Shown: in pieces, positions 3,093 to 39,418 of the stretch
Layout of the letters: every line of letters starts with the position of its first letter
Numbering within the stretch: position 1 is the first letter of the stretch
Assembly: GCA_965242695.1 (NCBI GenBank)
Contig: CBDESU010000001.1
Span: 1,248,001 to 1,312,000, forward strand
Reading direction: 5' to 3'
Source: Cenarchaeum sp.
GTDB taxonomy: Archaea > Thermoproteota > Nitrososphaeria > Nitrososphaerales > Nitrosopumilaceae
Length of the DNA: 64,000 nucleotides
Made by a program: the position numbers and the translations under genes
Notes under the pieces: generated by a model
Told to the model about the DNA's origin: nothing
The model's database searches: none
What the model saw: only the letters and a program-made list of their open reading frames with translations

Positions 3093-3267
3093 CCTGGCAG
3101 GCGGGCCGCTGCGATCGCCGTACGCAGTGCGATCCGCGGCCAGGCTGCCGACATGGCTCCCCTGGCAGCAGGCTAGCGATCGCCGTGCACAGGGCGGCTT
3201 GAACTCGGTGCGGCCCTCGTCGTCGAGCTCGCTCTGGCAGCAGGCTAGCGATCGCCGTGCACAGGGC
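3093..3267. repeat. Repeat-spacer-repeat locus A: exact 34-bp repeats at 3162-3195 and 3234-3267, 38-bp spacer, degenerate third copy at about 3093-3130
   Basis: ctggcagcaggctagcgatcgccgtgcacagggc twice, period 72. Confidence 0.9.
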
Positions 3268-3620
3268 AGCGCTTCCGCCGTGCCAGGGGACGGCCGAGGG
3301 GCAGGCCAGCAGCCGTGACGGAGCGCAGGTCCGACTGTGGCATCGGCAGGCCGGGCGGCTCCCGCCGCCGCAGCGTGAAAGGCGCGCCGTCCCCAAAGGA
3401 GCCGAGCCGTACGGCCGGCATCCGGCCCCTCTCCCTCCCCCAGGCATCAGGCCCTGTCCAATGCCACGAGGCGCGGGCAGGGGCGGCCGGGGCGCTGCCA
3501 GGCACGGAGCCAGGTCCGATCGCAACTCCCCGCGCATGGCGGCCCCTGTGCCGCCCGCCGCTGCGCCGATCTGCGCCCGCGCGAGGACGGCGGCAGGGCG
3601 GCGGGCGCGAGCCGCTGCCC

Positions 3621-3732
3621 CCCCCCCCCCAGGCCGGCATCCCTGCCCCGCGGCCGCCCGGAGGCTCGCAGTACCACAAGGAGCCGGACGGCACCCCCCC
3701 CCCAGGCCGGCATCCCTGCCCCGCGGCCGCCC
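3621..3732. repeat. Repeat-spacer-repeat locus B: 39-bp repeats (including a C run), 34-bp spacer
   Basis: C10-aggccggcatccctgccccgcggccgccc at 3621-3659 and 3694-3732, period 73. Confidence 0.88.
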
Positions 3733-3761
3733 CAAGGCGGCGCGGCGGCCGCAGTACGCAG

Positions 3762-4139
3762 TCAGAGCATCCCCATGTCGCTGGCCAGGTCCTTTGCCTT
3801 TTCGGCCGTCTCGAACTTTACAAACGCCTTTTTGCCGTAGATAGTCCGCGACGTATTGACCGACGCAGAGCGCTGCCCGTACAGGACCGACACGGCCTCG
3901 GCTATGTCGGCCTTTGAGGCCGTCCGCTCCACTATAAAGCACACCTTGGCCTCCCCCTCTACCATTGCAAACGTGCGCTCCGTGTTGTACGGGCGCAGCA
4001 CGATCGTGTGCGCCCTATCGACCGTCATTGGCGGGCGGCGGGATCGGCCCGAGGGCCGCCCGGCGGAACTTCCGGCCCTGCCGGCGGCGCCCCTGCCGCG
4101 CGAGAGGCGCGAGCCGAGCGAGCCGAGCGACGGCTTCAC
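3762..4139 (-). CDS. rpl23: 50S ribosomal protein L23 (start may be ATG at 4028)
   Basis: PYNTERTFAMVEGEAKVCFIVERTASKADIAEAVSVLY...VNTSRTIYGKKAFVKF; GTGA overlap with the L4 stop. Confidence 0.93.
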   Translation of the reverse strand: MKPSLGSLGSRLSRGRGAAGRAGSSAGRPSGRSRRPPMTVDRAHTIVLRPYNTERTFAMVEGEAKVCFIVERTASKADIAEAVSVLYGQRSASVNTSRTIYGKKAFVKFETAEKAKDLASDMGML

Positions 4140-5239
4140 TGCGGGCCGCCCTCCTCGCCGTCCCGACCCGCCTTTCCGGCCGCATCCGCTCCAGCCTCCG
4201 CGGCCGCCGGCGCCGCCTCCGCGGCCGCCGGCGCCGCCTCCGCCCCGCGGCCGCCGGCGCCGCCTCCGCCCCGCGGCCGCCGCCCGCCGCGCCTCCTTTC
4301 GCGCACCCTGCCGGCCAGGGCCGAGGATGTCGTCCTTCCGATCACGTCGAGCGCATCGGGTGTGTACACGACAAGGCGGCCCGGCTCGGAGCCGGGCGCG
4401 AGGTCCAGCACGCTCAGGTCGCCGGCTCGCACGACGTCGACGCCCGGTATCGAGCCGGCCGCCCGCGAGAGCGCGGGCGGAGGCGCCGGCCGCCCCGGCA
4501 TGGCCTCCTGCCCCCCGCCGTCTTCCGCTCCGCCCCGGGCGGCATCCGGGCCGGCAGCAGAGCCTCCGTTCTCGCCTCCCCCGACCACAAACAGGACGCT
4601 CTTGCCCGCCTTTTTCGGCCTGCCGCGCAGCGCCGAGCGGCCCGACCGCGAGCGCCGGCGCGCAAGGCGGTCCGCGTCAGGCCGCAGCCCAAGGGCACCG
4701 AGCACGCCTGCCAGCTCCGAGGCGCGCGCGATTCCCTCGACCTCGCCCGAGACCACAATCGGCAGGTCCCTGCCGTCCGGCAGGCGGTGGCCGCGCCCCT
4801 CGACTACGCCGCGCATGGCGGTAGCCGCTATTGCGGACCGGAGCGCAAGGCGCCGCTCTGTCCTGTTTATCCTCTTGTAGATGCGCTTGCTGGACCTTGG
4901 CGGGTGCGCCTGCCTGCCGCCCCTCGTCGATGCAACCTCGCCGCCCTCGCCGCCGCGCCCGCCGGCGCCGTTCGCATTCATGCGCGCCACGCGGGACCTC
5001 CCGTGGCCCGTCGGCGGGTCGAGCGAGTCTGCAGAGTTGTCCATGCCCGCCGTCGGGTGGACGCCCTTTGGCTGGTACCTGTGCGAGTCGAGTATCGTGT
5101 ACGCCTTGTGGACAAGGTCGCGCCTGAACGGCGACGAGAAGGCGTCGGGCAGCGCGGCCGTCCGGCCGGCCGCCGGCGAGCCGTCGAGCCCCAGGACCGC
5201 GACCTCGGACGGCGGCGCGCCGCCCCCGGCATCGCTCAT
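4136..5239 (-). CDS. rpl4: 50S ribosomal protein L4
   Basis: FRRDLVHKAY...QPKGVHPTAGMDNSA...TGHGRSRVAR...GGRQAHPP...LDLAPGSEPGRL; ATG at 5239 overlaps the L3 stop. Confidence 0.95.
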   Translation of the reverse strand: MSDAGGGAPPSEVAVLGLDGSPAAGRTAALPDAFSSPFRRDLVHKAYTILDSHRYQPKGVHPTAGMDNSADSLDPPTGHGRSRVARMNANGAGGRGGEGGEVASTRGGRQAHPPRSSKRIYKRINRTERRLALRSAIAATAMRGVVEGRGHRLPDGRDLPIVVSGEVEGIARASELAGVLGALGLRPDADRLARRRSRSGRSALRGRPKKAGKSVLFVVGGGENGGSAAGPDAARGGAEDGGGQEAMPGRPAPPPALSRAAGSIPGVDVVRAGDLSVLDLAPGSEPGRLVVYTPDALDVIGRTTSSALAGRVRERRRGGRRPRGGGGAGGRGAEAAPAAAEAAPAAAEAGADAAGKAGRDGEEGGPQ

Positions 5240-6507
5240 GCAATGACCTCCAGTATGTTCGGCCGCGCCGCCTTTTTGGGCGCGTTGCGCACCTGCGCGC
5301 GCATCTTTACGAGGCGCCGGTACGTGCCGGGAACCGATCCCCCGAGCACGACATAGTCGCCGCGCACTATACCAAAGTGCTTGTACCCGCCGGGCGGGTT
5401 GATCGCGGTGCGCGCCGCCTCGGCGGCGGCCGCCGCGGCGGCCGACACGGCCGTGCTGCGGCGCGGCTTGCCCCGGCCGCGGCGGCCCTTGCCCTTGCGC
5501 CCGCCCTTGCCGGCGGCAGCGGCCTCTTCGGCCACGGCCTCGGCGGCGGCGGCCTTTGCCGCGGCGGCCTCGTCGGCCTCGCGGGCCTCGGCGGCGGCCT
5601 TTTCGGCCCTGGCCCGCTCCTCGTCGGCGTTGCCGACGGCCATCACCCTCTTGTTGTACTCGACGCGCTGGTGGAACCCCATCTGGCCGGCGCGCGGAAC
5701 CGTGTACATGACGTACTGCGGCGATATGGGGCCGAGCGAGCCGATCTCGCGGACGGTCTTGCGCGACTTGTGCTGCTTGCGCTTTGCGCCCATGCGCTGT
5801 ATGACGCCCTGCCATCCCTTGCCCTTTGTGATGGCCGCCACGTCCACCCCCGAGCCGGCATCGAGCACGTCGCCGACGCGCACGTACCGGCCAAGGTTGT
5901 CCAAGAGGTACTCGAACTTTGCGGCCGCATCGCCGCCGTCGACTGCCGACTCGAATATGTACGGCCTCTTCTGCTCCAGGCCGGCGGCCCTGGGCGAGAC
6001 GGCCAGCACGGCGACGACATCCTCGACGCCCCCCAGCATGGCCCTGGCCCTCTCGAGCGGCGCCGCGGCGGCGCCCGCTCCGCCGTCCTCGCCCTTGGCC
6101 GGAACCGCCACGTGCCTGGGCATGTACTTTGAGAATTCCTTTGGCACGTCCTCGGCATACACGTCAAACGCGGCGCGGCGCCCGCCGTTGTCCCTCCCGT
6201 ACCCGCGAATGCCCAGGACGAACACGGGCGGCGTCACGATTACGGTGGCCGCGCTTACCAGCTGCTTGCCGGCGTTCGGCGTGTGCTCGCGATCGTCGAT
6301 CGTGACGAGCTGGACGCAGCCGGCCTTGAACCCCGCGTGCGCGAGCAGGCGCGGCTTGGGAGCGCCCTTTTTGTCCCCCCCGCGCGGCGCGCGCGTAGAG
6401 GCCGATGCGGGCCACCCGCGTATGCGCGCCTCCATGCTCTTTGCGCGCTTGCGCGGATAGTACGCCATGCTCCCGCGGCGCGGCTGGCTGTGCTTGCGGT
6501 GGCCCAT
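5236..6507 (-). CDS. rpl3: 50S ribosomal protein L3 with an internal Ala/Glu/Lys/Arg-rich insertion
   Basis: MGHRKHSQPRRGSMAYYPRKRA...GFKAG...TKGKGWQGVIQR...PRAGQMGFHQRVEYNKR...GSVPG. Confidence 0.97.
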   Translation of the reverse strand: MGHRKHSQPRRGSMAYYPRKRAKSMEARIRGWPASASTRAPRGGDKKGAPKPRLLAHAGFKAGCVQLVTIDDREHTPNAGKQLVSAATVIVTPPVFVLGIRGYGRDNGGRRAAFDVYAEDVPKEFSKYMPRHVAVPAKGEDGGAGAAAAPLERARAMLGGVEDVVAVLAVSPRAAGLEQKRPYIFESAVDGGDAAAKFEYLLDNLGRYVRVGDVLDAGSGVDVAAITKGKGWQGVIQRMGAKRKQHKSRKTVREIGSLGPISPQYVMYTVPRAGQMGFHQRVEYNKRVMAVGNADEERARAEKAAAEAREADEAAAAKAAAAEAVAEEAAAAGKGGRKGKGRRGRGKPRRSTAVSAAAAAAAEAARTAINPPGGYKHFGIVRGDYVVLGGSVPGTYRRLVKMRAQVRNAPKKAARPNILEVIA

Positions 6508-6587
6508 CGCCCGTCACGCTCCCCGCGGCGCGGCGGCCTGACCGTGCGGCGGCGCAACCGTGCGGTTCATCGGCGCGGCGGCCGAGC

Positions 6588-6601
6588 GTTTTAATATATA
6601 C
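6588..6601 (-). promoter_or_regulatory. Putative TATA box of the ribosomal operon
   Basis: TATATATTAAAA on the minus strand upstream of rpl3. Confidence 0.5.
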
Positions 6602-6764
6602 CAATCCTTCCTATTCGGGACGCAGGCGCGATCGCGGCCGCCGGGCCGGTCCTGCCCCGCGCCGCATCCCGCTTTCCAGCCCCCGCGCCCCGAATTTCCC
6701 CCTCTTCCACGGCCCGGCGGCGGGCAGGCCAACCCATAAAGCGCCCGCGCCCGCGCCGCCGTCC

Positions 6765-7061
6765 GTGGCGTCGGCCCTGGTAATCCCCATACTGATCGCC
6801 GCCGCAGCCGGCCTGGCGGCCTACCTGCTGTACAGGCTCGTCATATACGACATGGCGTGCGCCAGGTCGGTGAGGTCCACCCTAAAGCACCACGGCATAC
6901 CCGAGACGCCCCTGCAGATCATACTAGAGTTCCACCGCGCCGCCGGCAGGCCGATCGCCCGCGAAGAGGCCGAGCGGCTCGAAAAGGAGTACCGGCAGGC
7001 CGATCCCGGCAGGTTCCTGGCCATGTACGACGAGATCCGCGAGGGGCGCGCCCGGCAGTGA
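6765..7061 (+). CDS. Small protein with an N-terminal transmembrane helix
   Basis: In-frame GTG at 6765; VIPILIAAAAGLAAYLLY hydrophobic stretch; typical codon usage. Confidence 0.7.
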   Translation: MASALVIPILIAAAAGLAAYLLYRLVIYDMACARSVRSTLKHHGIPETPLQIILEFHRAAGRPIAREEAERLEKEYRQADPGRFLAMYDEIREGRARQ

Positions 7062-7073
7062 CGGCGCCCGGCC

Positions 7074-7949
7074 TCAGCGATCGCCGTTGTCCGCGATCGG
7101 TATCTGCACGAACGGCGTTGCGCCGCTCTCGCCGACCACAAGCGGCAGCTTGCCGTCCCACTCCTTGGTCTTGAGCCACTCCATGTAGTGGGGGTTCTCC
7201 GAGAGCGCCTTGTTTATCGTCGAGATCGCCTCGGCCTCGCCGCGAGCCTCGGCTATGTTGGCGTTGGCCCGGCCGGTCGCCTGCGCCTCGAGCTGCCTCG
7301 CCTCGACCTCTATGCGGAGCAGGTCGTTCTCTGCCTTTAGCGCCTTTTGCTCGGCCTCGACCTTTGACTCGATGGCCTTGGCGAAGAGCGGCGAGAACTC
7401 GAAGTTTGTGATCGAGATGACCTCGGTCACGACGTTGAACTGCGCGAGGCGATTGCTTATGGACGACTCTATGTCCTCCTTGACCAGCGGCCTCTTCGTG
7501 ATCAGCTCCTCGGCGTTGTAGTTGGCAGTGACCTGCTTTACCGTCTCCTCAATGGCCGGCTGTATGACGCGGTTCTCGTAGTCTAGGCCGAGCTCCTTGT
7601 ACAGGACGTGCACAGAGTCCCTGGCCGGGTAGTAGTTTACCGTGACGGTCGTCTCGACCGTCTGGAGGTCCTTTGACGCGCTGCGCGTGTTCTTGTCGTA
7701 CTTTAGGGTGCGCACCTCGATGGGAACCACGTCGTCCTGGAAGGGGACGACAAAGTGGAGGCCCTCGTCTAGCGGCGGCTGCGACAGGTCGACCGCATTC
7801 CAGTGGAGCAGGACGCCCTTGTGTCCCGCGTCCACTATCTTTACGGACGCGAACGCGACGACGCCGATTATGATGATCGCGACGATGCCGATGGCGATCC
7901 CACGGGCCACGCCCGCGCGGACGGGCCGTGGCGACTCGTACCTAGACAC
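7074..7949 (-). CDS. SPFH/Band 7 (prohibitin-like) membrane protein
   Basis: N-terminal TM; VDAGHKGVL...EGLHFVVPF...SKDLQ...FSPLFAKAIESKVEAEQ...WDGKLP. Confidence 0.93.
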   Translation of the reverse strand: MSRYESPRPVRAGVARGIAIGIVAIIIIGVVAFASVKIVDAGHKGVLLHWNAVDLSQPPLDEGLHFVVPFQDDVVPIEVRTLKYDKNTRSASKDLQTVETTVTVNYYPARDSVHVLYKELGLDYENRVIQPAIEETVKQVTANYNAEELITKRPLVKEDIESSISNRLAQFNVVTEVISITNFEFSPLFAKAIESKVEAEQKALKAENDLLRIEVEARQLEAQATGRANANIAEARGEAEAISTINKALSENPHYMEWLKTKEWDGKLPLVVGESGATPFVQIPIADNGDR

Positions 7950-8206
7950 GGCGGCGCGCCGGCAGGCCCCCTATTATACCATGCAGGGCGGCGCAGATCC
8001 GGCCCCGCGGCTGCCTCGGAGCGGCCCAAGGCCCCCGTCCGGCCGCGCCCCCTCCCGTGAACGCCGCTGGCGATCCGCCGCTCACCCCCTCCCCGGCGGC
8101 GGGTGGCCCGCGGCCCGCTCGTGGCCCCGAGCCTCCCTTCCCCAAAGCGGCGGCGGACGACCCCCTGTGGCCCGCCTGCCGCGGCCGCCCGCCCCCGGCG
8201 GCGCCT

Positions 8207-8422
8207 CTACACGACCTCTACCATCGTCTCGGTGCGCTCGACGCCCCGTATCGCGTGGATCTCGGCGGCGACGTCCTTTATCTGTGCCAGGCTCTCGACT
8301 CGTATGACGGCGACTGCGTCAAACTGCCCGCTCACCGGGAACGAGTCCTCGACCGAGCCGACCTTGCGCAGGCGGGCGGCGATGAGCTTCTTTGGCGACT
8401 TTACCAGCATGACCGCCCTCAC
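8207..8422 (-). CDS. Lrp/AsnC ligand-binding (RAM) domain protein
   Basis: VRAVMLVK...VSGQFDAVAVIRVESLAQIKDVAAEIHAIRGVERTETMVEV; GTGA overlap with the upstream paralog. Confidence 0.82.
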   Translation of the reverse strand: MRAVMLVKSPKKLIAARLRKVGSVEDSFPVSGQFDAVAVIRVESLAQIKDVAAEIHAIRGVERTETMVEVV

Positions 8423-8658
8423 CAACCCATGTTCACCTCCACCTCGATCATGGTCTCCGTCGTGACGATCCCCTTGATCCTCTTGAAGTCGATGATCGCC
8501 GAGTTGATCTCGTCGATCGACCCGTGCAGCAGCACGCACACGTCGGCCCTGCCCGTCACGACCAGCGTGTCCTTGACGGGGCGGCGCTTGCGGCGCAGCA
8601 CGGCGGTCACCTCGTCGACGAGGCCCGGCCCGACCGTCACCATGCACAGCGCCCGCAC
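8419..8658 (-). CDS. Lrp/AsnC ligand-binding (RAM) domain protein
   Basis: VRALCMVTVGPG...VVTGRADVCVLL...IKGIVTTETMIEV. Confidence 0.82.
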   Translation of the reverse strand: MRALCMVTVGPGLVDEVTAVLRRKRRPVKDTLVVTGRADVCVLLHGSIDEINSAIIDFKRIKGIVTTETMIEVEVNMGW

Positions 8659-9357
8659 GCCCGCGGGCCAAGCCCTGATGTAGATAAGGGTTTTTGCGCA
8701 TGCTGCGGCCAGCCCGCTGAATGCACACGGCAGGCCTTTGCGGGCGCTGTCAGCCCCGCCTCCCCCCCCCCCCCCCCTTGCTACCAAGGCCGCCGTGCAG
8801 TGTGTCCCTGCGCCGCCCGTGTCCAAAGCCGATCGCCGCGCGGTGCGCAGGGACGACATCCTCGAAGCGGCCCGCGTCCGAATGCCAGGCGGCCCGGAGC
8901 GGGCGCGCTTCCGCATCGCGAGAATCGAGAGCGCGGCCCCGCGGTGCACCTAGACGGCCGCATCCCGCCGCCCGACGATTGCCTGCATCCCTGCCGCGCA
9001 GCATGCTCGTCAATGCCGTCGGCGTCAAGGCCAGCCATCTCCCTACAGTACGCCGGCGCCCCGTTGCGCCGTCCCGCCCGCGACAAGACGGCGGGCAGGC
9101 CCAAGCATGCAGGCACGGCACCGAGTCCGCACCCCAAGCGGGGCGTCCTGCACATCCGGGATCCCGCCGGTGTGATCCCGATCCTACGCTCCCGCCCCAC
9201 GCCTCGATATGACAGTGCACATCCATGCCACCTCCGCATCGCGTCCCAATGCCACCGTTGCGTGCTAGGGCACCACACAATGCGCCCTGCCGCCAAGGTC
9301 AACGCCGGTCGTCACATGCGGGAGAGGAGGCAGAGTAGCGCAACGCATGCCAGCGTC

Positions 9358-9816
9358 CTACTTGGGCAGTTTGTAGCCGCATTGATGCATCTGGAGGGCA
9401 TGCGCCTTGCCATCTATTGGCCACCTGTATTTTTTTACGGTTTGATACGACGATCTATGCTTAAAAGTTTTAGCCAAGAGAATCAATCGGACGCGTGGGT
9501 GTGTTCGCGGGATCAGCGTGCGCGCCCATTCTAGCGCACGTTCCAGTGTATTGTCAAATTTCTCTTTGATAGATGACTGGTTTATTTTTGAGCTTTTAAG
9601 CTCTACGATTACAATATTGAGCATGCTTGTGTAGTAAAATACAACGCAATCGCATGCCTTTTTGTCTACTATCACGCCGTCTGCCTTTATTATTAGGCGG
9701 TTGTCTATGTTCGGCAGGGCCAGCTTGCAGTTTTGCTCACAACATTCCTTGACCACGTGCCTCGCCAGTCCAAGTTCCATAGCCATGGCTTCAAGCCTTC
9801 GAGTCATCCCACGCAT
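9358..9816 (-). CDS. Hypothetical protein with PD-(D/E)XK-like motif; partner of the upstream ATPase
   Basis: CDCVVFY...IVIVELKS; clearly lower GC than its flanks; overlaps the ATPase stop. Confidence 0.65.
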   Translation of the reverse strand: MRGMTRRLEAMAMELGLARHVVKECCEQNCKLALPNIDNRLIIKADGVIVDKKACDCVVFYYTSMLNIVIVELKSSKINQSSIKEKFDNTLERALEWARTLIPRTHPRVRLILLAKTFKHRSSYQTVKKYRWPIDGKAHALQMHQCGYKLPK

Positions 9817-11341: not shown

Positions 11342-11490
11342 GGCGCATCCGCGCGGCGGGGCGCCTTAAGCGTTGCCACAGCGGTCAAGACGGCGCGCGG
11401 AACCAGCGCCGCGCCTGCCCGCCCCGAGCGATGCCAAGGGTCGGGCGGCGCCCCGCCAGGGCGGGCGCGCGGGCGGCGCCCGGGCGCTGA

Positions 11491-14556: not shown

Positions 14557-14749
14557 GCAAGGCGGCGAACCGCGTTGCGTTAAAAGAGTTGCGCCGCCCC
14601 CACATGCCGGGTGGGGGCGTGCGTGTGTGCGCCCTTCCCCCCAACCGCGCAGCCGCCAGCGCCTACACCGCTCCCGGATGCCCGCGTTGTTCGTCGCCTC
14701 TTGAGCGCGGAGGCGAACAGCCGGGCACGAGAGGACGCCGCAGGCGCCC

Positions 14750-14853
14750 GCTGAGGGGGTCGCAGGCGCCCGTCTCACGGAGGCTCCATGACCCTGATGC
14801 GCGTTCGGGCCCATCCAGCTGAGTGGAGTCGCAGGCGCCCGTCTCACGAAGGC
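14750..14853. repeat. Repeat-spacer-repeat locus C: about 35-bp near-identical repeats, 33-bp spacer
   Basis: gctgagggggtcgcaggcgcccgtctcacggaggc (14750-14784) versus gctgagtggagtcgcaggcgcccgtctcacgaaggc (14818-14853). Confidence 0.85.
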
Positions 14854-15374: not shown

Positions 15375-15407
15375 CGGGCAGCCATGCAGCTGTCGGCGAT
15401 GCCAAGA

Positions 15408-15511
15408 GCTGCATCAGGGGCGCGCCTCGTTAGGCGGTCACTTGCGGTTCCGCGCCTGGGAAGAGTTCGACGTCGACGCTGCATCAGGGGCGCGCCTCGT
15501 TAGGCGGTCAC
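15408..15511. repeat. Repeat-spacer-repeat locus D: exact 34-bp repeats, 36-bp spacer
   Basis: gctgcatcaggggcgcgcctcgttaggcggtcac at 15408-15441 and 15478-15511, period 70. Confidence 0.92.
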
Positions 15512-15597
15512 CTGGTAAGAGTTATCGGCCTTGTGACGTGCGCCGCGGCGGGGGATCGTAGGGGGCCGCGAGCATGAGCAACCCGCGCCGCCCCTCC

Positions 15598-22891: not shown

Positions 22892-22990
22892 CTGCCCGGC
22901 GGCCCGCCCCGGCCCCGCCGCCATTTGCGGCCCCGCCGGCCACCCTGCGCAGGTCGTTTCTGCCCGGCGGCCCGCCCCGGCCCCGCCGCC
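22892..22990. repeat. Repeat-spacer-repeat locus E: exact 31-bp repeats, 37-bp spacer
   Basis: ctgcccggcggcccgccccggccccgccgcc at 22892-22922 and 22960-22990, period 68. Confidence 0.88.
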
Positions 22991-22991
22991 G

Positions 22992-27638: not shown

Positions 27639-29648
<2,010 letters not shown>

Positions 29649-33510: not shown

Positions 33511-36500
33511 CTACCCGGCGCCGGCGCACTCTGCCGTGTACTCGACGCGCTGGGCCAGCTCGGCTTCATCCACCTGGGCGTGCCCCGTCAGGTTGAGCAT
33601 GAACCACAGCGGCGCCTCTAGGCCGCCGCCGAGATTGCGCGCGACGGAAGCGCCTCCCGCCGGCAGCGGGGCGAATCCCGCATCCGATCCGGCCGCGCTC
33701 AGCAGCGTAGCATTGGCCGGAATCTGCGACAAGGTGGCGTTCAAGACGGGCGCGCCCGGAAGCGGAGTGACGGACCACGGTGTCGCATCGAGCTCGACGC
33801 GCGCAAACGGCAGCGATCCCAAGTTTACCACCGCCTGCTCGGCCGCATCGGAATAGTCGCCGGGCCTAGCCTGCGCGGCCAGGCGCTCCGAGCCGAGGCG
33901 CATCGAGCACGTGTGGTCGACGGGCGGCGGCGTGCCGCGCTCGGATGCGGCGGTGCCGAACCGCGTCAGGTGGTACGTGTGGACGACCATGTCGCCTCCC
34001 GACTCGATCCGGCACTCGCCCGAGCCGCCGAGCTGGCGGTGGACCCTCTCCGTGTCGTCGGCAGCGCATGCCAAGTCGATCGGCACGATCGCGCCGTCCT
34101 CTCCCTCGATGTAGAACGCGCGGCCGCCGGCCTGGCCGTCAAGGGATATGCGGACGGGTATGTCGAACGTGATGCGGCCGTCGCCGTTGCCGCCGGCCTC
34201 GACGATCGTTCGCAGGATCATTCCGCCAGAGCTGGGATATGCCAGGGCGGCCGTGGCAGCCTCGTTGGAGACCTCTCCGCCGTCCACGTACAGGTAGAGC
34301 GTGCCGGCGGCGGGGACGGACATTGCTGTGACGCCCGGCGGGAACGTCACCGCGCCGAACGAGGCCGTCAGCGTGACGGCCTCTGCCGGGAACGTGGCAG
34401 TGCCCTGCGCGTCGGGCGTGCGGGCCAGTGCCGTCACGTTGATCGCCAAGCGCGCAGCCTCGCCGGCCGCGGTGCCGTCGACTGCCCGGGTAAAGCCGTC
34501 CGGCTCGATGCTGACGGGCGCCGGCCGCGTCTGCGCAACTAGGACGGTCTCCAGCATCCGTCCGGATGCGACTGGTATGTCCCCGGCCGCAAACCGCGGC
34601 GGGTCTACTCCCTGTCCGCCCGTCCCCTCCAGGTCGACTGCAAGTGTGATCGCCCCCGACTGGTTGCGGCCCACGCCGTCCCCGCCGAACGCGACGGTGT
34701 GGACCGCCGTGCCCAGCCCCTCCACACCCGATACGGCGCGCGTGCCGCCACCGCCTCCGTCTTCTGCGTCGATCTCAACCGCAGCGTACACGGGGCCGTC
34801 GTGTCCCGCCGGCGGCCCGAGCGCCGCCGAGTACGTTATTGTCACGGCGTTGCGGGCGGTGAATGCGGCCCTGGCCGTCGCGTTGCCCTGCGGCGGCGCC
34901 GCCCCGGCCAGATCGAGCGGGAGTGCGGCGTCCGTCCCGAGCGGAAGCCGGGCCGCATCGATCACCGCCGTCTCGTCCATCTCGAGCACGCCCGTCGCCC
35001 CAGGCCCTGCCGGGTCGCCGCCGAATGCCACCGTGTGCACGGCGGTTCCGTTGCCCGTCAGGCTGGAGACCACACGCAGGCCGCCTCCCGAGGACAGCGT
35101 GACGGACGCGTACGCGCCGGGCGCGGCCCATACGGGCTCCGTGTACTGGATCTCGGCCGCGTTCGGCCCCGCAACACGGGCGGATCGTACCCCTGGGGCG
35201 ATCCCGTCTCCGACGCTCGTCGACGAGGCGGCAGGCTCGTTGCCGGCCGGATCGGCAACGTTGCCGCCCGCCGGATCGTACGAGATCACCACCCCGTCGG
35301 GGGCCGTATCGGGCAGATCGCCGTCAAGGGTAAGATCGAGCGAGGTAGACGGCTCCGCAATGTCCTGGCTCAAGGCGACATCCAGCCCCTCGGCGTCGCG
35401 GCCCGACACGGACCAGCCGCCGGCGCCGGCGCCCGGGGCCAGCACGGGCTCGCTGAACAAGACCCGCATCGTGTCGAGCGATACGGCCGTTGCGCTGCGC
35501 ACCGACGGCGACTGGCCGTCGTCAAGATCGATCGCCCCGTCCGCGCCGAGCGCGTGACCCGCCGCATCGCGCACCGCCGCAGGATCCATTTCGAGTACGC
35601 CCGTAGCGGCCGGCCCGGCGGGGTCGCCGCCGAATGCCACCGTGTGCACGGCCGTCCCGTTGCCCTCGAGTCCGTCGACCGCACGCGGGGCCCCGCCCGA
35701 GGCCAGCGTCACGGACGCGTACGCTCCGGGCTCGGCCCACATGGGCTCCGTGTACCGGATCTCGGCCGAGTCGGGGCCCGCAATGGCGGCCGACCTGATC
35801 TCTGGGACGATCCCGTCTCCGACGCTCGTCGACGAGGCGACAAGGCCGTTTCCGGCCGCATCCTCGACGCTGCCGCCGGCCGGGCGGTACGAGAGGGTTA
35901 TCGCGTCCGGAGCGGTGTCGGGCAGATCGCCTCCCAGTGTGAGATCGAGCGAGGCGGACGGCCCTGCAAGATCCTGGCTCGATGCGACGGCAAGCCCCAC
36001 TGCGTCGCGGCCCGAGATCGCCCAGCCGCCGGCGCCCGTGCCCGGGGCCACCACGGGCTCGGTGAACGAGACGCGAATCGTGTCGAGCGAGACGGCCGTG
36101 GCGGCGAGCACCAACGGCGACTGGCCGTCGTCGAGCGTGCGCTGGATCGTGCCGTCGCCGAGCAGCATGTCCGATCCGTCCGATCCCGGCGACACGACGG
36201 CCGCCCCGTCAATCTCCACGCTGCCGGTCGCGTTCGGCTGCGCGTCGCCCGGGGTGAACGTGAGCGTGTGGAAGTGGCTGCCGCCACCGTCTCCCCCGTC
36301 CAGCCCCGTTATCGTCCTGTTCTGCCCGCCGACCGCGAGCGACGAGTACGCCTCGAGTGGGGCCTCTGCGTTTCTGGTGTACGCAATGACGGCCGTGTCG
36401 GGCCCCGTAATCCTCGACGAGAATACGTCCAGCACCCTCCCGTCTAGGATGTCCACGGTCAAGACGTCGTCGCCGAGCGGGTTTGCCGGGTCTGCCTCGT

Positions 36501-39225
36501 CGAGTACGGCCGTGCCGTCGACGGCCATGCTGCTAGGCGGCTCGGGGACGGGGGCCGGCTCGCCGGCAAAGCCGATCACGTGCTGGCGGAGGGCGGCCGT
36601 GTCGTGGGGACTGATCGTGCGGGAAGTCCCTCCGATCTCGAGCCCCGAGTAGGCTCCCTGCGATGCGGCGACCGGCTCTGTATAGTCGATTGTAATCTCC
36701 AGGTTCCCCGTGATCAGCGCCTCGTCAATGCTCGGCCGTATGCGGTCGGCCACGGCTATGCCCGTCCTGTCCTGCAGCTGGTTGCCGGCCTCGTCCCTAA
36801 TGCCGCCCTCGCTGGCGTCGTATGACAGCTCGAGATCGGGGGCCGTGTCAGGCAGGGTGTCGTTGAACGCAAAGACGATCTCGGTCTTCGGCGCCGACGC
36901 ATTGACGGGCCCGAGGGCGGCTATGGAAAGGTTGGCCGCGCTGGGCCCCGATATGGACCAGCCGGCCGAGGCGTTCATCGAGCCCGACGTGACGGGCCCG
37001 TCAAAAGTGACGCGTATGCGGTCCAGGGACTCGGCCTCGGCCAACCGCACCTTGGGCGCCACGGTGTCGACTGCAATGTCCTTGCGCTCTCCGAGCGTGT
37101 CATCGAAGCCCCATCCCGGCAGCTCCAGGTCGGCGTCGTTGCCGGCCGCGTCCCGTATGGTCCCGCCGTTGGCGGACAGGGCCGCCGTGCCCGTATAGTT
37201 CAGGTCGTCCGTCTCGTCGCCCTGCCGCACCGTGTACGAGAATACCAGCGTGTCGGAGTTGTTGCCTCCGGCAAGCGTTGCATTCCTGTCGGTCGCGCCC
37301 GTCTCGAGCCGTATGGACGGCGTGCCGCTTGCGTTGCTGAAGACGACGATCTCGCTAAGTTTCACCCGCACGTCGATCGTGGTGCCGACGGGGTGCAGGC
37401 CGTCGTCCGTTTCCGAGTAGACATACTCTACCTCTGGGCTGACCGTATCGAGTGTGATCATGCCAGAGTCGAGCAGGCCGTCCGTGCCAGGCTGGGGCAG
37501 GGCCAGGTCGGTGGCCCTGTTGCCGACCGCGTCCCGTATGATCGCGCCGTTCTCGGTCAGGGCCGTTGTGCCCGCATAGTCCAGGTCGGCCGTGTCGTCG
37601 CCATCCGTCACACTGTAGGAAAACTCCAGCGTCCGGCCGGTGCTCGCGGCCGCGTCGTACTCGGCGTAGCGGGCAACTGCCGCCCCCGTGCTCAGCTCGA
37701 TCCGCGGCGTGCCGCCCGTTTCGTCGACGACGACATCCTCGCTGAAGGTTACCGTGACGACTATGCGCGAATCGATGCCGTACGTGCCGTTGGGGGTCGT
37801 CGACGAGACCGACTCGACGGTCGGTCGCGTTGTGTCAAGGCGGATTGGCCCCAAGGCGCCGAACGGCCCGGCCATGACGGGATCGGGCAGGGCCAGGTCG
37901 GTGGCCCTGTTGCCGACCGCGTCCCGTATGATCGCGCCGTTCTCGGTCAGGGCCGTTGTGCCCGCATAGTCCAGGTCGGCCGTGTCGTCGCCATCCGTCA
38001 CACTGTAGGAAAACTCCAGCGTCCGGCCGGTGCTCGCGGCCGCGTCGTACTCGGCGTAGCGGGCAACTGCCGCCCCCGTGCTCAGCTCGATCCACGGCGT
38101 GCCGCCGGCGGTGTCGACATCTACGTTCTCGCTGAACAGGGCCCTGACTGCGATGATCGAGCCCTCCCTGTGCGGGCCCGTCCCGTTCGGGGACGTGACG
38201 TTCAGGACGGTCGGCCGGGTTGCATCTATCGGAACGGGCCCCGAGCGGCCGAGCGGGCCCGATGCGGACAGGGTCAGGTTGGCAGGGTTGCCTGGCTTGT
38301 CTGTCATGTTGCCGGCCGTTGTCAGCGCCATCGTGCCGTTGTAGCCTACGTCGGACGCATCGTCGCCGCCCTGCACCTCGTAGGCGAACGTGAACCTGTT
38401 TGTGTTGTTTCCCCCCGTGTAGCTGGCGTTGCGCGTCTCCCCGCTGCTCAGGTTGAGCATTAGAATGGGCGCGGCGCCCGAATAGACGACTGTATCGTCA
38501 AAGTTGACGCCGAATTCGATGCCGTCGCCCAGGCCGTATCCCCCGCTGGGGGGAGACACGGTGACGTTGGCCACGCGCGGCGCGATGCCGTCGAGTCTTA
38601 TGTCTGCCTGGGCCGACAGGGATCCTGGGCCCCTCGGCTGCGGTAGGTAGCATTTCATGGGATTATTATTGCCATCCTCAATTCTTGTGGTGGTCGAACC
38701 GTGTGTGACGACGAAGTACATCGCCCTTGTCGAGTCGTAGTCTAGGTCGCTGGTGTTGTCGCCGGCCCGCACCGTGTAGCGCCACTCGGCCCAGTGTCCA
38801 GAGTTTGGGGCCTCTGTGAAATTGGCATACCCCTCGGACTCGCCGCCCGTCTCGAGCCTGATGTGGGTGTGCCCTAGGAGATGAAGGGCGCTCTCGGTTG
38901 TATCGAAGCCCCCGCTGTCCGAACCAAAGTCGTAGGCGGAACTGGCGCGAATGTCGATCGTGTCGCCGATCTTGTACGTGCCGTTGGGCGAGCGGAATTC
39001 GATCGAGTTTATATTACTGGATCCCGATCTGTCGCACGGCCCCGCGGTGGCCGATCCTGCATGGGCATCGAGAGGCGCGGCCGCTACGGCAAGCGCGAGT
39101 ATGACGGCGGCCGCGGCAAGCGCGGCCATGGCGGAGGTCAGGCGGCGGCGGGCCGCTGTTCCGCGCCGCACCCCCCCCCCCAGGCCCTGCCGCGTGGGCT
39201 CCCGTGCGGCCGGCCCATGCCGCAT
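33511..39225 (-). CDS. Very large secreted or surface protein with tandem Ig-like repeats (start may be about 39130)
   Basis: Signal-like AMAALAAAAVILALAVAAAPLDAHA; repeats P-x-V-x-x-V...V-x-FSE-x-V...L-x-F-x-Y-x-V-x-x-GD...L-x-Y...NG-x-x-IRD-x-x-GN; second repeat class SLDTIRVxFxEPV. Confidence 0.85.
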   Translation of the reverse strand: MRHGPAAREPTRQGLGGGVRRGTAARRRLTSAMAALAAAAVILALAVAAAPLDAHAGSATAGPCDRSGSSNINSIEFRSPNGTYKIGDTIDIRASSAYDFGSDSGGFDTTESALHLLGHTHIRLETGGESEGYANFTEAPNSGHWAEWRYTVRAGDNTSDLDYDSTRAMYFVVTHGSTTTRIEDGNNNPMKCYLPQPRGPGSLSAQADIRLDGIAPRVANVTVSPPSGGYGLGDGIEFGVNFDDTVVYSGAAPILMLNLSSGETRNASYTGGNNTNRFTFAYEVQGGDDASDVGYNGTMALTTAGNMTDKPGNPANLTLSASGPLGRSGPVPIDATRPTVLNVTSPNGTGPHREGSIIAVRALFSENVDVDTAGGTPWIELSTGAAVARYAEYDAAASTGRTLEFSYSVTDGDDTADLDYAGTTALTENGAIIRDAVGNRATDLALPDPVMAGPFGALGPIRLDTTRPTVESVSSTTPNGTYGIDSRIVVTVTFSEDVVVDETGGTPRIELSTGAAVARYAEYDAAASTGRTLEFSYSVTDGDDTADLDYAGTTALTENGAIIRDAVGNRATDLALPQPGTDGLLDSGMITLDTVSPEVEYVYSETDDGLHPVGTTIDVRVKLSEIVVFSNASGTPSIRLETGATDRNATLAGGNNSDTLVFSYTVRQGDETDDLNYTGTAALSANGGTIRDAAGNDADLELPGWGFDDTLGERKDIAVDTVAPKVRLAEAESLDRIRVTFDGPVTSGSMNASAGWSISGPSAANLSIAALGPVNASAPKTEIVFAFNDTLPDTAPDLELSYDASEGGIRDEAGNQLQDRTGIAVADRIRPSIDEALITGNLEITIDYTEPVAASQGAYSGLEIGGTSRTISPHDTAALRQHVIGFAGEPAPVPEPPSSMAVDGTAVLDEADPANPLGDDVLTVDILDGRVLDVFSSRITGPDTAVIAYTRNAEAPLEAYSSLAVGGQNRTITGLDGGDGGGSHFHTLTFTPGDAQPNATGSVEIDGAAVVSPGSDGSDMLLGDGTIQRTLDDGQSPLVLAATAVSLDTIRVSFTEPVVAPGTGAGGWAISGRDAVGLAVASSQDLAGPSASLDLTLGGDLPDTAPDAITLSYRPAGGSVEDAAGNGLVASSTSVGDGIVPEIRSAAIAGPDSAEIRYTEPMWAEPGAYASVTLASGGAPRAVDGLEGNGTAVHTVAFGGDPAGPAATGVLEMDPAAVRDAAGHALGADGAIDLDDGQSPSVRSATAVSLDTMRVLFSEPVLAPGAGAGGWSVSGRDAEGLDVALSQDIAEPSTSLDLTLDGDLPDTAPDGVVISYDPAGGNVADPAGNEPAASSTSVGDGIAPGVRSARVAGPNAAEIQYTEPVWAAPGAYASVTLSSGGGLRVVSSLTGNGTAVHTVAFGGDPAGPGATGVLEMDETAVIDAARLPLGTDAALPLDLAGAAPPQGNATARAAFTARNAVTITYSAALGPPAGHDGPVYAAVEIDAEDGGGGGTRAVSGVEGLGTAVHTVAFGGDGVGRNQSGAITLAVDLEGTGGQGVDPPRFAAGDIPVASGRMLETVLVAQTRPAPVSIEPDGFTRAVDGTAAGEAARLAINVTALARTPDAQGTATFPAEAVTLTASFGAVTFPPGVTAMSVPAAGTLYLYVDGGEVSNEAATAALAYPSSGGMILRTIVEAGGNGDGRITFDIPVRISLDGQAGGRAFYIEGEDGAIVPIDLACAADDTERVHRQLGGSGECRIESGGDMVVHTYHLTRFGTAASERGTPPPVDHTCSMRLGSERLAAQARPGDYSDAAEQAVVNLGSLPFARVELDATPWSVTPLPGAPVLNATLSQIPANATLLSAAGSDAGFAPLPAGGASVARNLGGGLEAPLWFMLNLTGHAQVDEAELAQRVEYTAECAGAG
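37495..38092. repeat. Apparently identical ~208-bp intragenic duplication (37495-37702 and 37885-38092)
   Basis: Both copies encode IELSTGAAVARYAEYDAAASTGRTLEFSYSVTDGDDTADLDYAGTTALTENGAIIRDAVGNRATDLALP; offset 390 bp. Confidence 0.9.
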
Positions 39226-39308
39226 GCAGGGGATGTACCTTGCGCCATTGCTGTCCGCCTGTCGCCCAAATGGGGCCTATAAAAGCATGCGCTCGGGTCG
39301 ACAAGCTG

Positions 39309-39418
39309 GATGGCGCCCAGGGCGCCCGGTGAGGTCGGCTGGAGACCTTGCGCTCACTGTGGGCCACGACGTCGGGGGCGATGGCGCCCAGGGCGCCCGA
39401 TGAGGCGAGCCGGAGACC
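39309..39418. repeat. Repeat-spacer-repeat locus F: 39-bp diverged repeats, 32-bp spacer
   Basis: gatggcgcccagggcgcccggtgaggtcggctggagacc versus gatggcgcccagggcgcccgatgaggcgagccggagacc, period 71. Confidence 0.85.

Follow-up and report, generated by a model that had tools for sequence, protein, structure and literature searches.

Dispersed repeat-insert-repeat units in a Cenarchaeum genome are probably off-target integrations by the resident type I-G CRISPR system

A 64,000-nucleotide stretch of Cenarchaeum sp. DNA (hereafter, the window) contains short direct repeats that flank inserts at CRISPR-like dimensions, with a different repeat at each site, which raises the question of how such units arose. 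The original prediction listed six of them, and all six were recovered, with periods of 68-73 bp, by a direct-repeat search and our own scan. The search returned the pairs at 3162/3234 (37 nt, 97% identity, spacing 72), 3621/3694 (45 nt, 96%, spacing 73), 14756/14825 (39 nt, 87%, spacing 69), 15408/15478 (37 nt, 97%, spacing 70), and 39309/39380 (39 nt, 87%, spacing 71). The pair at 22892 lay outside the 20 repeat families listed by this search; our scan identified it as a perfect 31-nt duplication with a spacing of 68. We also found a seventh unit, absent from the earlier list, at 52989/53059 (38 nt, 89%, spacing 70). The boundaries of unit C were corrected by alignment from the 14756-based call. 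The features are as follows:

2527-2958, minus strand: gene for ribosomal protein S19
3111..3270: unit A, three copies; repeat 3162-3198, insert 3199-3233 (35 nt), repeat 3234-3270; period 72
3111-3131: core of the diverged oldest copy of unit A; period of 65 to this copy
3621..3738: unit B; repeat 3621-3659, insert 3660-3693 (34 nt), repeat 3694-3732 (extends to 3738); period 73
3762-4139, minus strand: gene for ribosomal protein L23
14750..14852: unit C; repeat 14750-14783, insert 14784-14817 (34 nt), repeat 14818-14852; period 68-69
15408..15514: unit D; repeat 15408-15444, insert 15445-15477 (33 nt), repeat 15478-15514; period 70; 36/37 identical
22892..22990: unit E; repeat 22892-22922 (perfect 31 nt), insert 22923-22959 (37 nt), repeat 22960-22990; period 68
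39309..39418: unit F; repeat 39309-39347, insert 39348-39379 (32 nt), repeat 39380-39418; period 71; 87% identity
52989..53096: unit G; repeat 52989-53026, insert 53027-53058 (32 nt), repeat 53059-53096; period 70; 89% identity

Units A and B share the noncoding gap between the S19 and L23 genes. The 3162 repeat of unit A has its diverged third copy at 3111, while the repeat of unit B is perfect over 39 nt and 96% identical over 45 nt. The second repeat of unit C carries a 1-nt indel near its start. Unit E is flanked by the genes for a cobalamin adenosyltransferase (22228-22776, minus strand) and an AAA/DUF4143 protein (22992-24473, minus strand). Unit F, which at 87% identity is older, separates a 1904-aa Big_5 ORF from the gene for a proteasome subunit. 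Unit G lies upstream of the onset of codon periodicity in ORF 52473-54863. All seven window units are intergenic, as had been claimed for the original six, and sequence listings of the window and the genome showed that repeats at separate sites are unrelated to each other. A crude gene call placed two of the window units inside long ORFs; we counted them as intergenic because these ORF stretches lack codon periodicity and precede the likely true starts. Genome-wide, the same type of call placed 89 of 108 units between genes.

The pattern extends over the whole 3.89-Mb genome, which carries an archaeal SSU rRNA and AmoA and is found in sponge metagenomes. We detected 99 repeat pairs at periods of 67-74 bp versus ~7.4 expected with the same filters for all periods, the expectation being taken from neighboring periods (mean of 0.92 pairs per period at 50-64 and 77-99). 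No pairs arose when the genome was shuffled with its composition matched (block-wise, first-order Markov), and in a separate genome-wide scan, 86 of 222 isolated pairs fell at 67-73 bp. Thus, the anticipated peak near 70 bp is present and far above chance. The predicted density of about one unit per 10 kb was, however, too high: the genome holds about one per 36-39 kb, and the window is unusually rich, with seven units in 64 kb. The periods of the 108 ectopic units were 67 (5 units), 68 (8), 69 (9), 70 (13), 71 (29), 72 (38), 73 (5), and 74 (1), and the inserts ranged from 22 to 46 bp and were noncoding, without terminal repeats. Half of the units (54) are perfect pairs, and 34 of these 54 have a duplication of 34-39 nt. 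In 17 high-identity units, the duplication spans only 25-32 nt at a normal period, with no residual similarity alongside; this class is unexplained by a simple model of a 36-nt cut and a 36-nt spacer.

Empty sites demonstrated that the units are insertions with target duplication. For 8 of 120 units tested, we found paralogous loci in which both flanks align but only one repeat copy and no insert are present, and which are shorter by 66-74 bp. The empty sites that had been foreseen in relatives therefore exist as paralogs within the same genome, and where such paralogs are available, the repeat is native local sequence in single copy. Among four public runs, we found no presence/absence polymorphism of units. 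Units B and C also occur in contigs of another study (X5, ~0.65% divergent): the contig in record 19 covers 3630-3732 of unit B, and record 21 spans unit C without a loss of ~69 nt. At unit D, both X1 and X5 contigs stop at 15437 and resume at 15482; X5 contigs break within perfect duplications, as X1 contigs do.

Comparison of the inserts with the host genome, as originally proposed, revealed that some have sources elsewhere in it. Fourteen of 108 inserts matched distant self DNA over 27-37 nt at ≥88% identity with the homology confined to the insert, versus 16 of 864 flanking control 36-mers with an equally confined match (odds ratio 7.9, p=6e-7). The raw rate of self-matches was not raised (17/108 inserts versus 16/108 and 10/108 flanking 36-mers); the inserts stand out solely in that their homology stays within the insert. 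In addition to the 14, the insert of unit C was copied from C2:681609-681644 (33/34 matching bases and a 2-nt gap); this source is located ~19 kb from orc1/cdc6. The sources are clustered, as 16 self sources include four pairs within 8 kb versus 0.5 expected (P=0.002). In or flanking the only orc1/cdc6 gene of the genome (C2:700368-701597, beside the PolD genes) lie the sources of a canonical CRISPR spacer (C2:698844) and of two ectopic inserts (C2:700602 and C2:706049). Thus, ectopic inserts and canonical spacers have a source hot spot around orc1/cdc6 in common.

The impression that the inserts resemble coding sequence held in aggregate. Their GC 3-periodicity (0.331, n=97) was close to that of canonical spacers (0.332, n=329) and exceeded that of the units' own repeats (0.212, n=88; p=4e-8) and flanks (0.269, n=216; p=7e-6). 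The search for a shared PAM was negative in that the 14 self sources have no consistent motif: a clean TTN was present in two, and several flanks were T-rich but shifted by 1-3 nt. A weak end signal, T or TT followed by G, was found at 29 of 198 insert ends versus 6.4% of random genome positions. None of the four window insert cores tried had an exact match in a viral contig collection.

The single type I-G CRISPR-Cas locus of the genome lies ~150 kb away from the window and provides the expected cas1/cas2/cas4 system:

C1:1072687-1096404: canonical array; 330 repeats of 36 nt, 329 spacers, modal period 72
C1:1096696-1096893: Cas2

The only Cas1 of the genome is part of a 653-aa Cas4-Cas1 fusion ORF with conserved catalytic and cysteine residues, and a Cas3-like protein, Cas_GSU0053, and Cas_GSU0054 are encoded on the other side of the array. 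Canonical spacers measure 36 nt in 121 cases, 35 in 77, 37 in 66, 34 in 30, 38 in 28, and other lengths in 7. These dimensions match those of the ectopic units, whose mean period, by arithmetic on the period counts, is ~1.2 bp below the canonical one (70.8 versus 72.0).

Next, we compared relatives, of which G004 and G002 belong to the same genus, on 400 kb sampled from each. G004, which has Cas4-Cas1 and an identical CRISPR repeat, had 9 of 26 isolated pairs at 69-73 bp, and G002, with Cas4-Cas1 and an array mode of 71, had 13 of 30 at 67-73 bp (mode 70-71). The unit class is therefore present in three species of the genus. G001 and G003, which lack Cas1, had 1 of 10 and 0 of 6 isolated pairs in the peak; their GC contents (58% and 51%) and genome sizes are different as well, which confounds them as controls. 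Among these four, the peak is thus associated with Cas4-Cas1: both carriers of the genus show it, and the two species without Cas1 do not. In G017, which has an I-G array, none of 12 pairs fell in the peak; its ~37 sampled array units predict only about one ectopic unit in 400 kb.

Together, these data led us to conclude, with a probability of roughly 85%, that the units are fixed off-target integrations by the resident type I-G Cas4/1-Cas2. Every proposed check that was run supported the core of the original prediction, a long-running ectopic integration of spacers with duplication of a repeat-length target. Regarding the agent, the casposase or unknown integrase that had been invoked is unneeded, as the resident Cas4-Cas1/Cas2 is the obvious candidate; dimensions, co-occurrence, and the shared source hot spot link it to the units. 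As it does at the canonical array, the complex would join both 3' ends of a ~33-37-bp prespacer to opposite target strands ~36 bp apart, and gap repair would duplicate the DNA between the cuts. The product would be a repeat-insert-repeat unit whose period is close to 71 bp. Every site would have its own repeat because the duplicated sequence is whatever stood at the target. Inserts would be drawn from the normal spacer pool, to which host DNA from around the replication origin contributes, and some sites may have been struck again to form small arrays. The units are probably non-functional, and self-derived inserts would be tolerated because ectopic sites should yield no usable crRNA.

It is improbable that the ~35-bp inserts with ~36-bp duplications stem from another enzymatic activity, such as an integrase, a transposase-like enzyme, or DNA repair, and match CRISPR by coincidence. 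The lack of a clean PAM at the self sources, the short-duplication class, which canonical Cas1-Cas2 geometry does not predict, and the indirect link to Cas1 would fit such an activity. However, spacer length, duplication length, and period all agree with the resident array, and neither the distribution of the peak among the sampled relatives nor the orc1/cdc6 hot spot favors it. The inserts have no terminal repeats or coding capacity, and a casposase is absent because the single Cas1 is CRISPR-linked. Even less likely is a functional role in cis, in which, for example, two protein-binding sites spaced by some seven helical turns would have arisen by local duplication and been kept by selection. 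The tight period, the intergenic location, and the 5-mer GCAGG/CCTGC, present in 44% of repeats versus 22% of background windows, could suggest this; yet the repeats are unrelated from site to site, in at least 14 units the DNA between them is a copy of sequence located far away, and the empty paralogs indicate insertion and duplication. Moreover, the perfect half of the pairs suggests young events rather than conserved elements, and the intergenic bias is the expected residue of purifying selection against insertions in genes. Decayed canonical arrays or assembly and analysis artifacts are scarcely credible: a true orphan mini-array with a canonical-like repeat exists at one locus (C2:312248), but the other repeats, judged by eye from listings, are unlike the CRISPR repeat and are native single-copy sequence where paralogs exist, while the X5 contigs, with breaks like those of X1, the separate assemblies of G002 and G004, and the empty shuffle argue against artifacts.

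Off-target CRISPR integration would thus have left a rare natural record of ~100 units in a sponge-dwelling archaeon, roughly one per three canonical spacers; the literature searched held no natural case at such a scale, with sites growing into small arrays. Casposons are self-synthesizing transposons of many kilobases with their own Cas1-family casposase and polymerase and terminal inverted repeats. They resemble the units in that a Cas1-family integrase produces target-site duplications, but differ from the 22-46-bp inserts and single CRISPR-linked Cas1 described here.

The "ectopic spacer acquisition" described in excerpts on Streptococcus thermophilus and S. mutans (PMC7999890, PMC5338259, PMC8265633) likewise occurs away from the leader-proximal repeat. 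In the two S. thermophilus papers, however, an internal array repeat is targeted and the CRISPR repeat duplicated, whereas our sites are outside any array. In the portions at hand on Pyrococcus furiosus, Cas1-Cas2 integrates in vitro at non-CRISPR sites with repeat-like features (PMC6698737), and self-derived spacers are common, with OriC a hot spot of spacer uptake (PMC5737086), as around orc1/cdc6 here. Those off-target events are plasmid products in vitro rather than fixed genomic insertions (PMC6698737), and the systems are of other types, with repeats and spacers of other sizes.

The closest enzymes are the I-G (formerly I-U) Cas4/1-Cas2 of Geobacter sulfurreducens, with 36-bp spacers and a TTN PAM (PMC6547450), and that of Methanosarcina barkeri, whose spacer-side integration is less accurate than leader-side integration (PMC10504553). 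Both, as excerpted, share the fused Cas4-Cas1, Cas2, and mostly 36-bp spacers with our genome, and these properties fit the units. The repeat here ends, on the minus strand, in ...ATTGAAGC, as does the M. barkeri search string (PMC10504553). In canonical I-G adaptation, the leader-repeat junction is targeted and the CRISPR repeat copied, whereas ordinary intergenic DNA is used here and PAM trimming looks imprecise. The available text of PMC6547450 and PMC10504553 has no occurrence of "off-target", and its passages are silent on integration at other genomic sites.

The nearest precedent, and the idea behind the "neo-arrays" of the original prediction, is the formation of neo-CRISPR loci in E. 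coli overproducing Cas1-Cas2 (Nivala, Shipman and Church 2018, Nat Microbiol 3:310). There, according to the parts consulted, a spacer-sized insert at a non-CRISPR site is likewise flanked by a repeat-length target duplication, with its own repeat per site, and sites are able to gain further spacers. A citing preprint (10.1101/148544), in the portion seen, refers to "circumstantial evidence" of natural occurrence in two other species. The E. coli case concerns a type I-E system under artificial overexpression and rare events in cultures; in contrast, we describe a native archaeal type I-G system with a Cas4-Cas1 fusion and ~100 events fixed in one wild genome. Units of this class occur in three congeneric species, some inserts derive from the host's own DNA, and paralogs of empty sites are present.

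The six one-spacer repeat units of the original prediction proved to be real: five were recovered by a direct-repeat search and the sixth, at 22892, by a separate genome scan, and their repeats differ from site to site, as had been claimed. We use ectopic unit for a repeat-insert-repeat structure outside a CRISPR array. The window contains seven, one of them additional to the earlier six.

Ectopic units in the window (window positions; start of each repeat copy, repeat length, copy-to-copy identity, period)
Unit A, 3111-3270: pair at 3162/3234, 37 nt, 97%, 72 bp, with a diverged third copy at 3111; direct-repeat search
Unit B, 3621-3738: pair at 3621/3694, 45 nt, 96%, 73 bp; direct-repeat search
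Unit C, 14750-14852: pair at 14756/14825, 39 nt, 87%, 69 bp; direct-repeat search, before correction of the boundaries from the insert's source
Unit D, 15408-15514: pair at 15408/15478, 37 nt, 97%, 70 bp; direct-repeat search
Unit E, 22892-22990: perfect 31-nt duplication at 22892, 68 bp; separate genome scan
Unit F, 39309-39418: pair at 39309/39380, 39 nt, 87%, 71 bp; direct-repeat search
Unit G, 52989-53096: pair at 52989/53059, 38 nt, 89%, 70 bp; the additional unit

All seven lie between genes, which agrees with the position first assigned to the units. Two fall inside long open reading frames (ORFs) of a crude gene call; they were counted as intergenic because codon periodicity is absent from these stretches, which come before the likely true starts. 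Units A and B share an 800-bp non-coding gap between the genes for ribosomal proteins S19 and L23 (window 2958-3762), in a cluster ordered S3, L22, S19, gap, L23, L4, L3. L2, which archaea usually carry between L23 and S19, was absent from that place, and the sole Ribosomal_L2_C match in the genome lies on the other contig (G000:C2:151823-152197). The window also holds repeats of other kinds.

Other repeats in the window
24687-24785: a 33-bp unit in three head-to-tail copies with 91-100% identity, far more AT-rich than the surroundings, immediately upstream of ORF 24772-26133
26240-26890: tandem repeats nested at 21, 42, 63, 84, and 147 bp (the 21-bp unit occurs ~16-20 times) in the minus-strand ORF 26211-27341, resembling a repetitive protein motif of 7 residues
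37495-38222: 390-bp unit in 1.9 copies, 86% identical, within the 1904-aa ORF 33511-39225, which carries a bacterial Ig-like Big_5 domain
60384-60478: perfect 20-bp tandem repeat, 4.8 copies (GGCGCCGATCGCGGCCAGCA)

Next, we scanned the whole genome of this Cenarchaeum sp. (G000; 3,887,671 bp in two contigs, C1 and C2, with the window at C1:1248001-1312000) for short-range direct repeats, using 12-nt seeds and ungapped extension. Isolated pairs were those that remained once the CRISPR array and all cases with further repeats nearby had been excluded. Periods of 67-73 bp accounted for 86 of the 222 isolated pairs, while other periods held 0-3 pairs each, except for a peak at 102 bp. With uniform filters over all periods, we found 99 pairs at 67-74 bp against ~7.4 expected from the mean of 0.92 pairs per period at 50-64 and 77-99, and a block-wise first-order Markov shuffle of the genome yielded zero pairs; the predicted genome-wide peak near 70 bp is therefore present. 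The second sharp peak, at 102 bp (60 pairs with uniform filters), probably corresponds to 34-residue TPR repeats, and TPR-rich proteins flank the cas locus.

A slightly different filter gave the core set of 108 units used below, with 66 on C1 and 42 on C2. The two repeat copies are 100% identical in 54 units, 95-99% in 22, 90-95% in 23, and <90% in 9. The density of one unit per 10 kb proposed from the window was too high for the genome, which carries about one per 36 kb; the window, with its seven units, is a rich stretch. Although uncalled sequence makes up only ~35% of the genome, it contains 89 of the 108 units, a count that is approximate because the coding fraction marked by the crude gene caller was only 63-65%. 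Divergent intergenic regions hold 36 units, co-directional ones 39, and convergent ones 20, without strong bias, and 13 units lie inside crudely called genes. AT content showed a flat profile up to 120 bp from the units. Clustering near the CRISPR locus was not notable, with 4 units within 50 kb versus 2.8 expected.

The search for cas genes that had been proposed identified a complete adaptation module. A large CRISPR array at C1:1072687-1096404 contains 330 copies of a 36-nt repeat and 329 spacers, of which 121 are 36 nt long, 77 are 35, 66 are 37, 30 are 34, and 28 are 38; its period has a mode of 72 and is mostly 70-74. The only Cas1 of the genome adjoins this array, in a 653-aa ORF with a Cas4 domain ahead, and Cas2 is located between the Cas4-Cas1 gene and the array. 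On the other side of the array are a Cas3-like helicase-nuclease, Cas_GSU0053, and Cas_GSU0054, a gene content that by sequence identifies the system as type I-G (formerly I-U). Sequence comparison indicated that the catalytic residues of Cas4-Cas1 are conserved, and the module thus appears intact. The canonical repeat on the minus strand ends ...ATTGAAGC, and since the repeats at the low-coordinate end of the array are degenerate, the leader was placed at the cas2 end. The spacer and repeat lengths of this array match those of the ectopic units. Elsewhere in the genome, far from any cas gene, a degenerate orphan mini-array (G000:C2:312248-312420) consists of three copies, two good and one poor, of a canonical-like repeat that ends ...GGCCCCATTGAAG, at 68-bp spacing.

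If the units arose by insertion, some related loci should lack the insert. When a 3.5-kb segment that includes units C and D was compared with 31 genomes, 3 matched, G000 itself among them, and the best relative (G004, same genus) aligned at 77% in coding sequence only. Because orthologous intergenic sites were therefore not comparable, we used paralogs within the genome. For 120 candidate units, we searched for a second locus matching both flanks but about one period shorter. Eight units had such a paralog, with length differences of 66-74 bp.

Units with empty-site paralogs in the same genome
C1:398406: two paralogs
C1:740425: paralog at C1:742020
C1:921088: paralog at C1:2080031
C1:1059970: two paralogs on C2
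C1:1104055: paralog at C1:1123133
C1:1377965: paralog at C1:1380291
C1:1455386: paralog at C1:1445966
C2:665893: paralog at C2:668520

In most of these alignments, the paralog has the repeat sequence once and nothing in the place of the insert, so that the duplicated target is local sequence; the alignments of C1:921088 and C1:1104055 are too diverged for reading the junctions. As read from the alignments, such paralogs carry the signature of insertion with target duplication. The eight sites exclude the alternative that the spacer is ancestral local sequence, and the anticipated empty sites thus exist, as paralogs. The units are spacer-sized insertions with repeat-length target duplications, and their dimensions equal those of the resident array.

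The units are not assembly artefacts. The organism, which has an archaeal SSU rRNA and an archaeal AmoA, is represented by near-identical DNA in sponge metagenome runs from several studies, and contigs of one such public run from a different study (X5, ~0.65% divergent from the window) carry units B and C. Unit C is complete, as an 11,159-nt contig covers window 4272-15437 (an 11,166-nt span), and a contig covering 3630-3732 crosses the insert of unit B. Contigs of X5 and of a further run, X1, end within perfect duplications at identical points (15437/15482 and 22921), and those of X5 additionally break at 3191/3238; assembly graphs built from short words break in this way at repeats. In the parts covered by contigs of four public runs from four studies, we saw no unit-less alleles; one of these runs (X7) does not cover the units. 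The window also contains a homopolymer C run at 8754-8777 (24 bases at 82% purity) and a C10 run at 3621-3630 that opens the unit B repeat; near both, the public runs show contig depth spikes and small length differences.

To trace the inserts, we compared them with the genome by BLAST, as had been suggested. Some had full-length or nearly full-length matches at distant loci, with ends coinciding with the repeat/insert junctions (for example, 32/32, 37/37, 37/37, and 33/33 identical bases). The raw rate of self matches was not diagnostic because the genome is repeat-rich: 17 of 108 inserts matched, compared to 16 and 10 of 108 flanking 36-mers. We therefore considered homology confined to the insert, with both 25-nt flanks below 60% identity. 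This applied to 14 of 108 inserts but to only 16 of 864 control 36-mers (odds ratio 7.9, p=6e-7). The window adds another case with unit C: its insert at 14784-14817 aligns to C2:681609-681644 with 33 of 34 bases identical and a gap of 2 nt, and on this basis the unit was redefined as 34-35-nt repeats around a 34-nt insert. Some inserts are thus copies of sequence elsewhere in the genome. Source-anchored inserts measure 32-38 nt and the canonical spacers 34-38 nt with a mode of 36; there are exceptions among the units, such as a 22-nt insert at C1:740426. The earlier impression that the spacers look like coding sequence held in aggregate: GC 3-periodicity was 0.331 for inserts, equal to that of canonical spacers (0.332) and above that of the inserts' own repeats (0.212) and flanks (0.269), which agrees with an origin mostly from coding DNA. 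A collection of viral contigs gave 0 exact matches for four of the seven window insert cores, a weak test given the exact-match requirement.

The canonical array has only 2 perfect genome matches among its 329 spacers. When these were pooled with the 14 ectopic cases, 4 pairs among the 16 source positions lay within 8 kb of each other, compared to 0.5 expected (P=0.002). The main cluster, formed by a canonical source at C2:698844 and ectopic sources at C2:700602 and C2:706049, lies around the genome's single orc1/cdc6 gene (C2:700368-701597), itself located between the PolD large and small subunit genes; the sources at C2:681609 (unit C) and C2:673297 are within ~30 kb of it. This neighbourhood (G000:C2:692001-712000) is probably the one replication origin, and with a single orc1/cdc6, C1 and C2 are likely pieces of one chromosome. 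Ectopic inserts and canonical spacers have this source hot spot in common and thus appear to draw on the same uptake process. In Pyrococcus furiosus, a passage of PMC5737086 names OriC among the chromosomal protospacer hot spots.

The two self-matching canonical spacers, at C1:1090346 and C1:1095674, derive from C2:698844-698878 and C1:975632-975669. In the transcribed, minus-strand orientation, TAA directly follows both protospacers on the 3' side, equivalent to TTA at the leader-distal end. As a pointer only (n=2), this fits flipped, non-functional spacers taken from a site with a TTN PAM, and the flipped orientation could be the reason they are tolerated. The 14 self sources of ectopic inserts shared no consistent PAM. 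Despite this, T or TT followed by G opened 29 of 198 insert ends versus 6.4% of random genome positions and may represent an untrimmed TTN PAM.

We then evaluated other genomes at 400 kb each.

Isolated direct-repeat pairs in sampled relatives
G002 (same genus): Cas1 present; arrays of ~68, 70, and 390 units, all within 41 kb, in the sample C1:2700001-3100000, mode 71; 13 of 30 isolated pairs at 67-73 bp, mode 70-71
G004 (same genus): Cas1 present, identical repeat; arrays of ~227 and 21 units in the sample C2:2150001-2550000, mode 72-73; 9 of 26 isolated pairs at 69-73 bp
G001 (same genus): no Cas1, 58% GC; no arrays in the sample; 1 of 10 isolated pairs in the peak
G003 (same genus): no Cas1, 51% GC; no arrays in the sample; 0 of 6 isolated pairs in the peak
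G017 (another genus): Cas1 present, 38% GC; ~37 array units, mode 73; 0 of 12 isolated pairs in the peak

The open frame that holds Cas1 is 675 aa long in G002 and 669 aa in G004 (653 and 605 aa when counted from the first start codon), and both align with the G000 Cas4-Cas1 fusion across the Cas4 region. The peak was present in all three Cas4-Cas1-bearing genomes of the genus examined and absent from both Cas1-less ones; units occur only in the species that bear Cas4-Cas1. The Cas1-less comparison is suggestive rather than clean, as G001 and G003 also differ in GC content and genome size. G017 is too weak as a negative control, because its sampled array is small and, at the ectopic-to-canonical ratio of G000, predicts no more than about one ectopic unit. 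Mean ectopic periods in G002, G000, and G004 (70.7, 70.8, and 71.3) rank as the canonical ones do (71.6, 72.0, and 72.4), with differences within sampling error. A defect in Cas4-Cas1 was considered as the cause, but none was seen, and the Cas4-domain insertion of G000 and G004 is missing in G002, which has units. The type I-G arrays of G002 and G004 are very large, and in this high-GC clade adaptation seems to be unusually active. The link between the events and Cas1-Cas2 activity, drawn from co-occurrence across the genomes of the genus, is correlative.

Among perfect pairs, duplications were 34-39 nt long in 34 of 54, 25-33 nt in 18, and ≥45 nt in 2, compared to 36 nt for the canonical repeat. 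The first base of the duplicated segment is G in 53% of units and the last is C in 54%. GCAGG/CCTGC is present in 44% of repeats versus 22% of background windows, at diffuse positions with a loose preference for repeat ends. Where it abuts the first repeat, the leader ends in ...GTCGCAGG, an 8-mer that is also present in unit C. At least four sites hold more than one insert, several of them with 2-4, and spacer-to-spacer identity within multi-unit sites is 0.27-0.34.

Multi-insert sites
C1:2047112: periods 71, 71, and 71, plus a diverged copy
C2:173431: periods 72 and 71
C2:223805: periods 70 and 65
Window unit A: 3111-3270

The period is tighter than its parts. In the 54 perfect pairs, its mean was 70.3-71.2 in every class of duplication length, and the array at C1:2047051 keeps an exact 71-bp period with a conserved core of only 21-31 nt. 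Short duplications might be decayed 36-mers, and two cases, C1:1377966 (via its paralog) and unit C (via its source), indeed resolve to canonical sizes once anchored. This explanation found no support for the class: 17 high-identity units with duplications of ≤32 nt had no residual similarity beside the repeat at shifts of ≤2 nt (0.547 versus 0.527 for random; p=0.44). The paralog-anchored unit at C1:740426 has a 43-nt duplication and a 22-nt insert. Possible causes of the constant period are a measuring step that fixes spacer and repeat together, untrimmed prespacer 5' flaps that replace part of the new repeat copy, or imprecise spacer-side attack with compensating trimming.

Three known kinds of repeat locus were weighed as alternatives. 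A canonical array has one conserved repeat in all units, next to a leader, and is recognised by a Cas6-type nuclease; here the repeat differs at each site, and by eye none of the listed repeats resembled that of the array. Casposons and transposons are mobile elements with their own integrase gene, terminal repeats, and short target-site duplications, while these inserts are 22-46 nt long and differ among the listed sites, and the single Cas1 of the genome is at the CRISPR locus. In a tandem duplication or minisatellite the whole period, spacer included, would recur; here only the repeat part does, and TRF did not report the loci as tandem repeats.

Off-target integration by the resident Cas4/1-Cas2 (the Cas4-Cas1 fusion with Cas2) would proceed by two strand transfers at non-CRISPR targets, with the gaps then filled by host repair. 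The resulting units would be neutral scars surviving mainly between genes, and self-derived inserts would persist because no crRNA is made from them. Type I-G spacers of 36 bp, a TTN PAM, and a spacer length independent of Cas4 activity are given in a passage of PMC6547450, and an excerpt of PMC10504553 describes ~60-70% spacer-side versus 80-90% leader-side integration at the correct site. These published properties fit Cas4/1-Cas2 as the candidate agent. A bolder reading is that off-target integration in this archaeal lineage is a standing mutational process rather than an occasional accident, with ~1 ectopic insert per 3 array spacers, which seeds proto-arrays, and that the integrase fixes the sum of spacer and target (~71 bp) rather than the two lengths separately. 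We consider this bolder reading less likely than not, with a probability of roughly one in four. We know of no description of such a sum rule for Cas1-Cas2.

If this reading is true, the genome would be a natural, selection-free record of Cas4/1-Cas2 capture and integration sites and would give a direct view of how new CRISPR arrays are born. The events matter beyond that reading. They indicate that a wild type I-G system can integrate with so little specificity that genome structure is visibly marked, and the units are natural intermediates in the birth of arrays. Spacer uptake without selection can be read from the ~13% of ectopic inserts that are traceably self-derived, as compared to 2 perfect self matches among 329 canonical spacers, and about a hundred natural target sites are available for reading the sequence preferences and measuring rules of the enzyme. 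CRISPR finders and repeat annotators may mis-score such units. Scanning for isolated direct repeats at a genome's own array period is cheap and applicable to every CRISPR-bearing genome.

Off-target integration had been shown in the laboratory, while its importance in nature had been an open question. P. furiosus Cas1-Cas2 integrates off-target in vitro, according to a passage of PMC6698737. An incomplete literature search found no published natural genome with many such events, and a preprint citing Nivala et al. terms, in one passage, the evidence from natural genomes circumstantial (10.1101/148544). The closest known case is that of Escherichia coli overproducing Cas1-Cas2, in which off-target integration created 'neo-CRISPR' loci (Nivala et al. 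2018, as described in papers that cite it); in outline, the mechanism is the same. In contrast to E. coli, the system here is a native archaeal type I-G Cas4/1 system and the events are fixed. New here are the scale, with about a hundred fixed events in each of three sister species (400 kb sampled from G002 and G004), the self sources that can be traced to the origin, the paralogs with empty sites, the extension of some sites into small arrays, and the unexplained constancy of the period.
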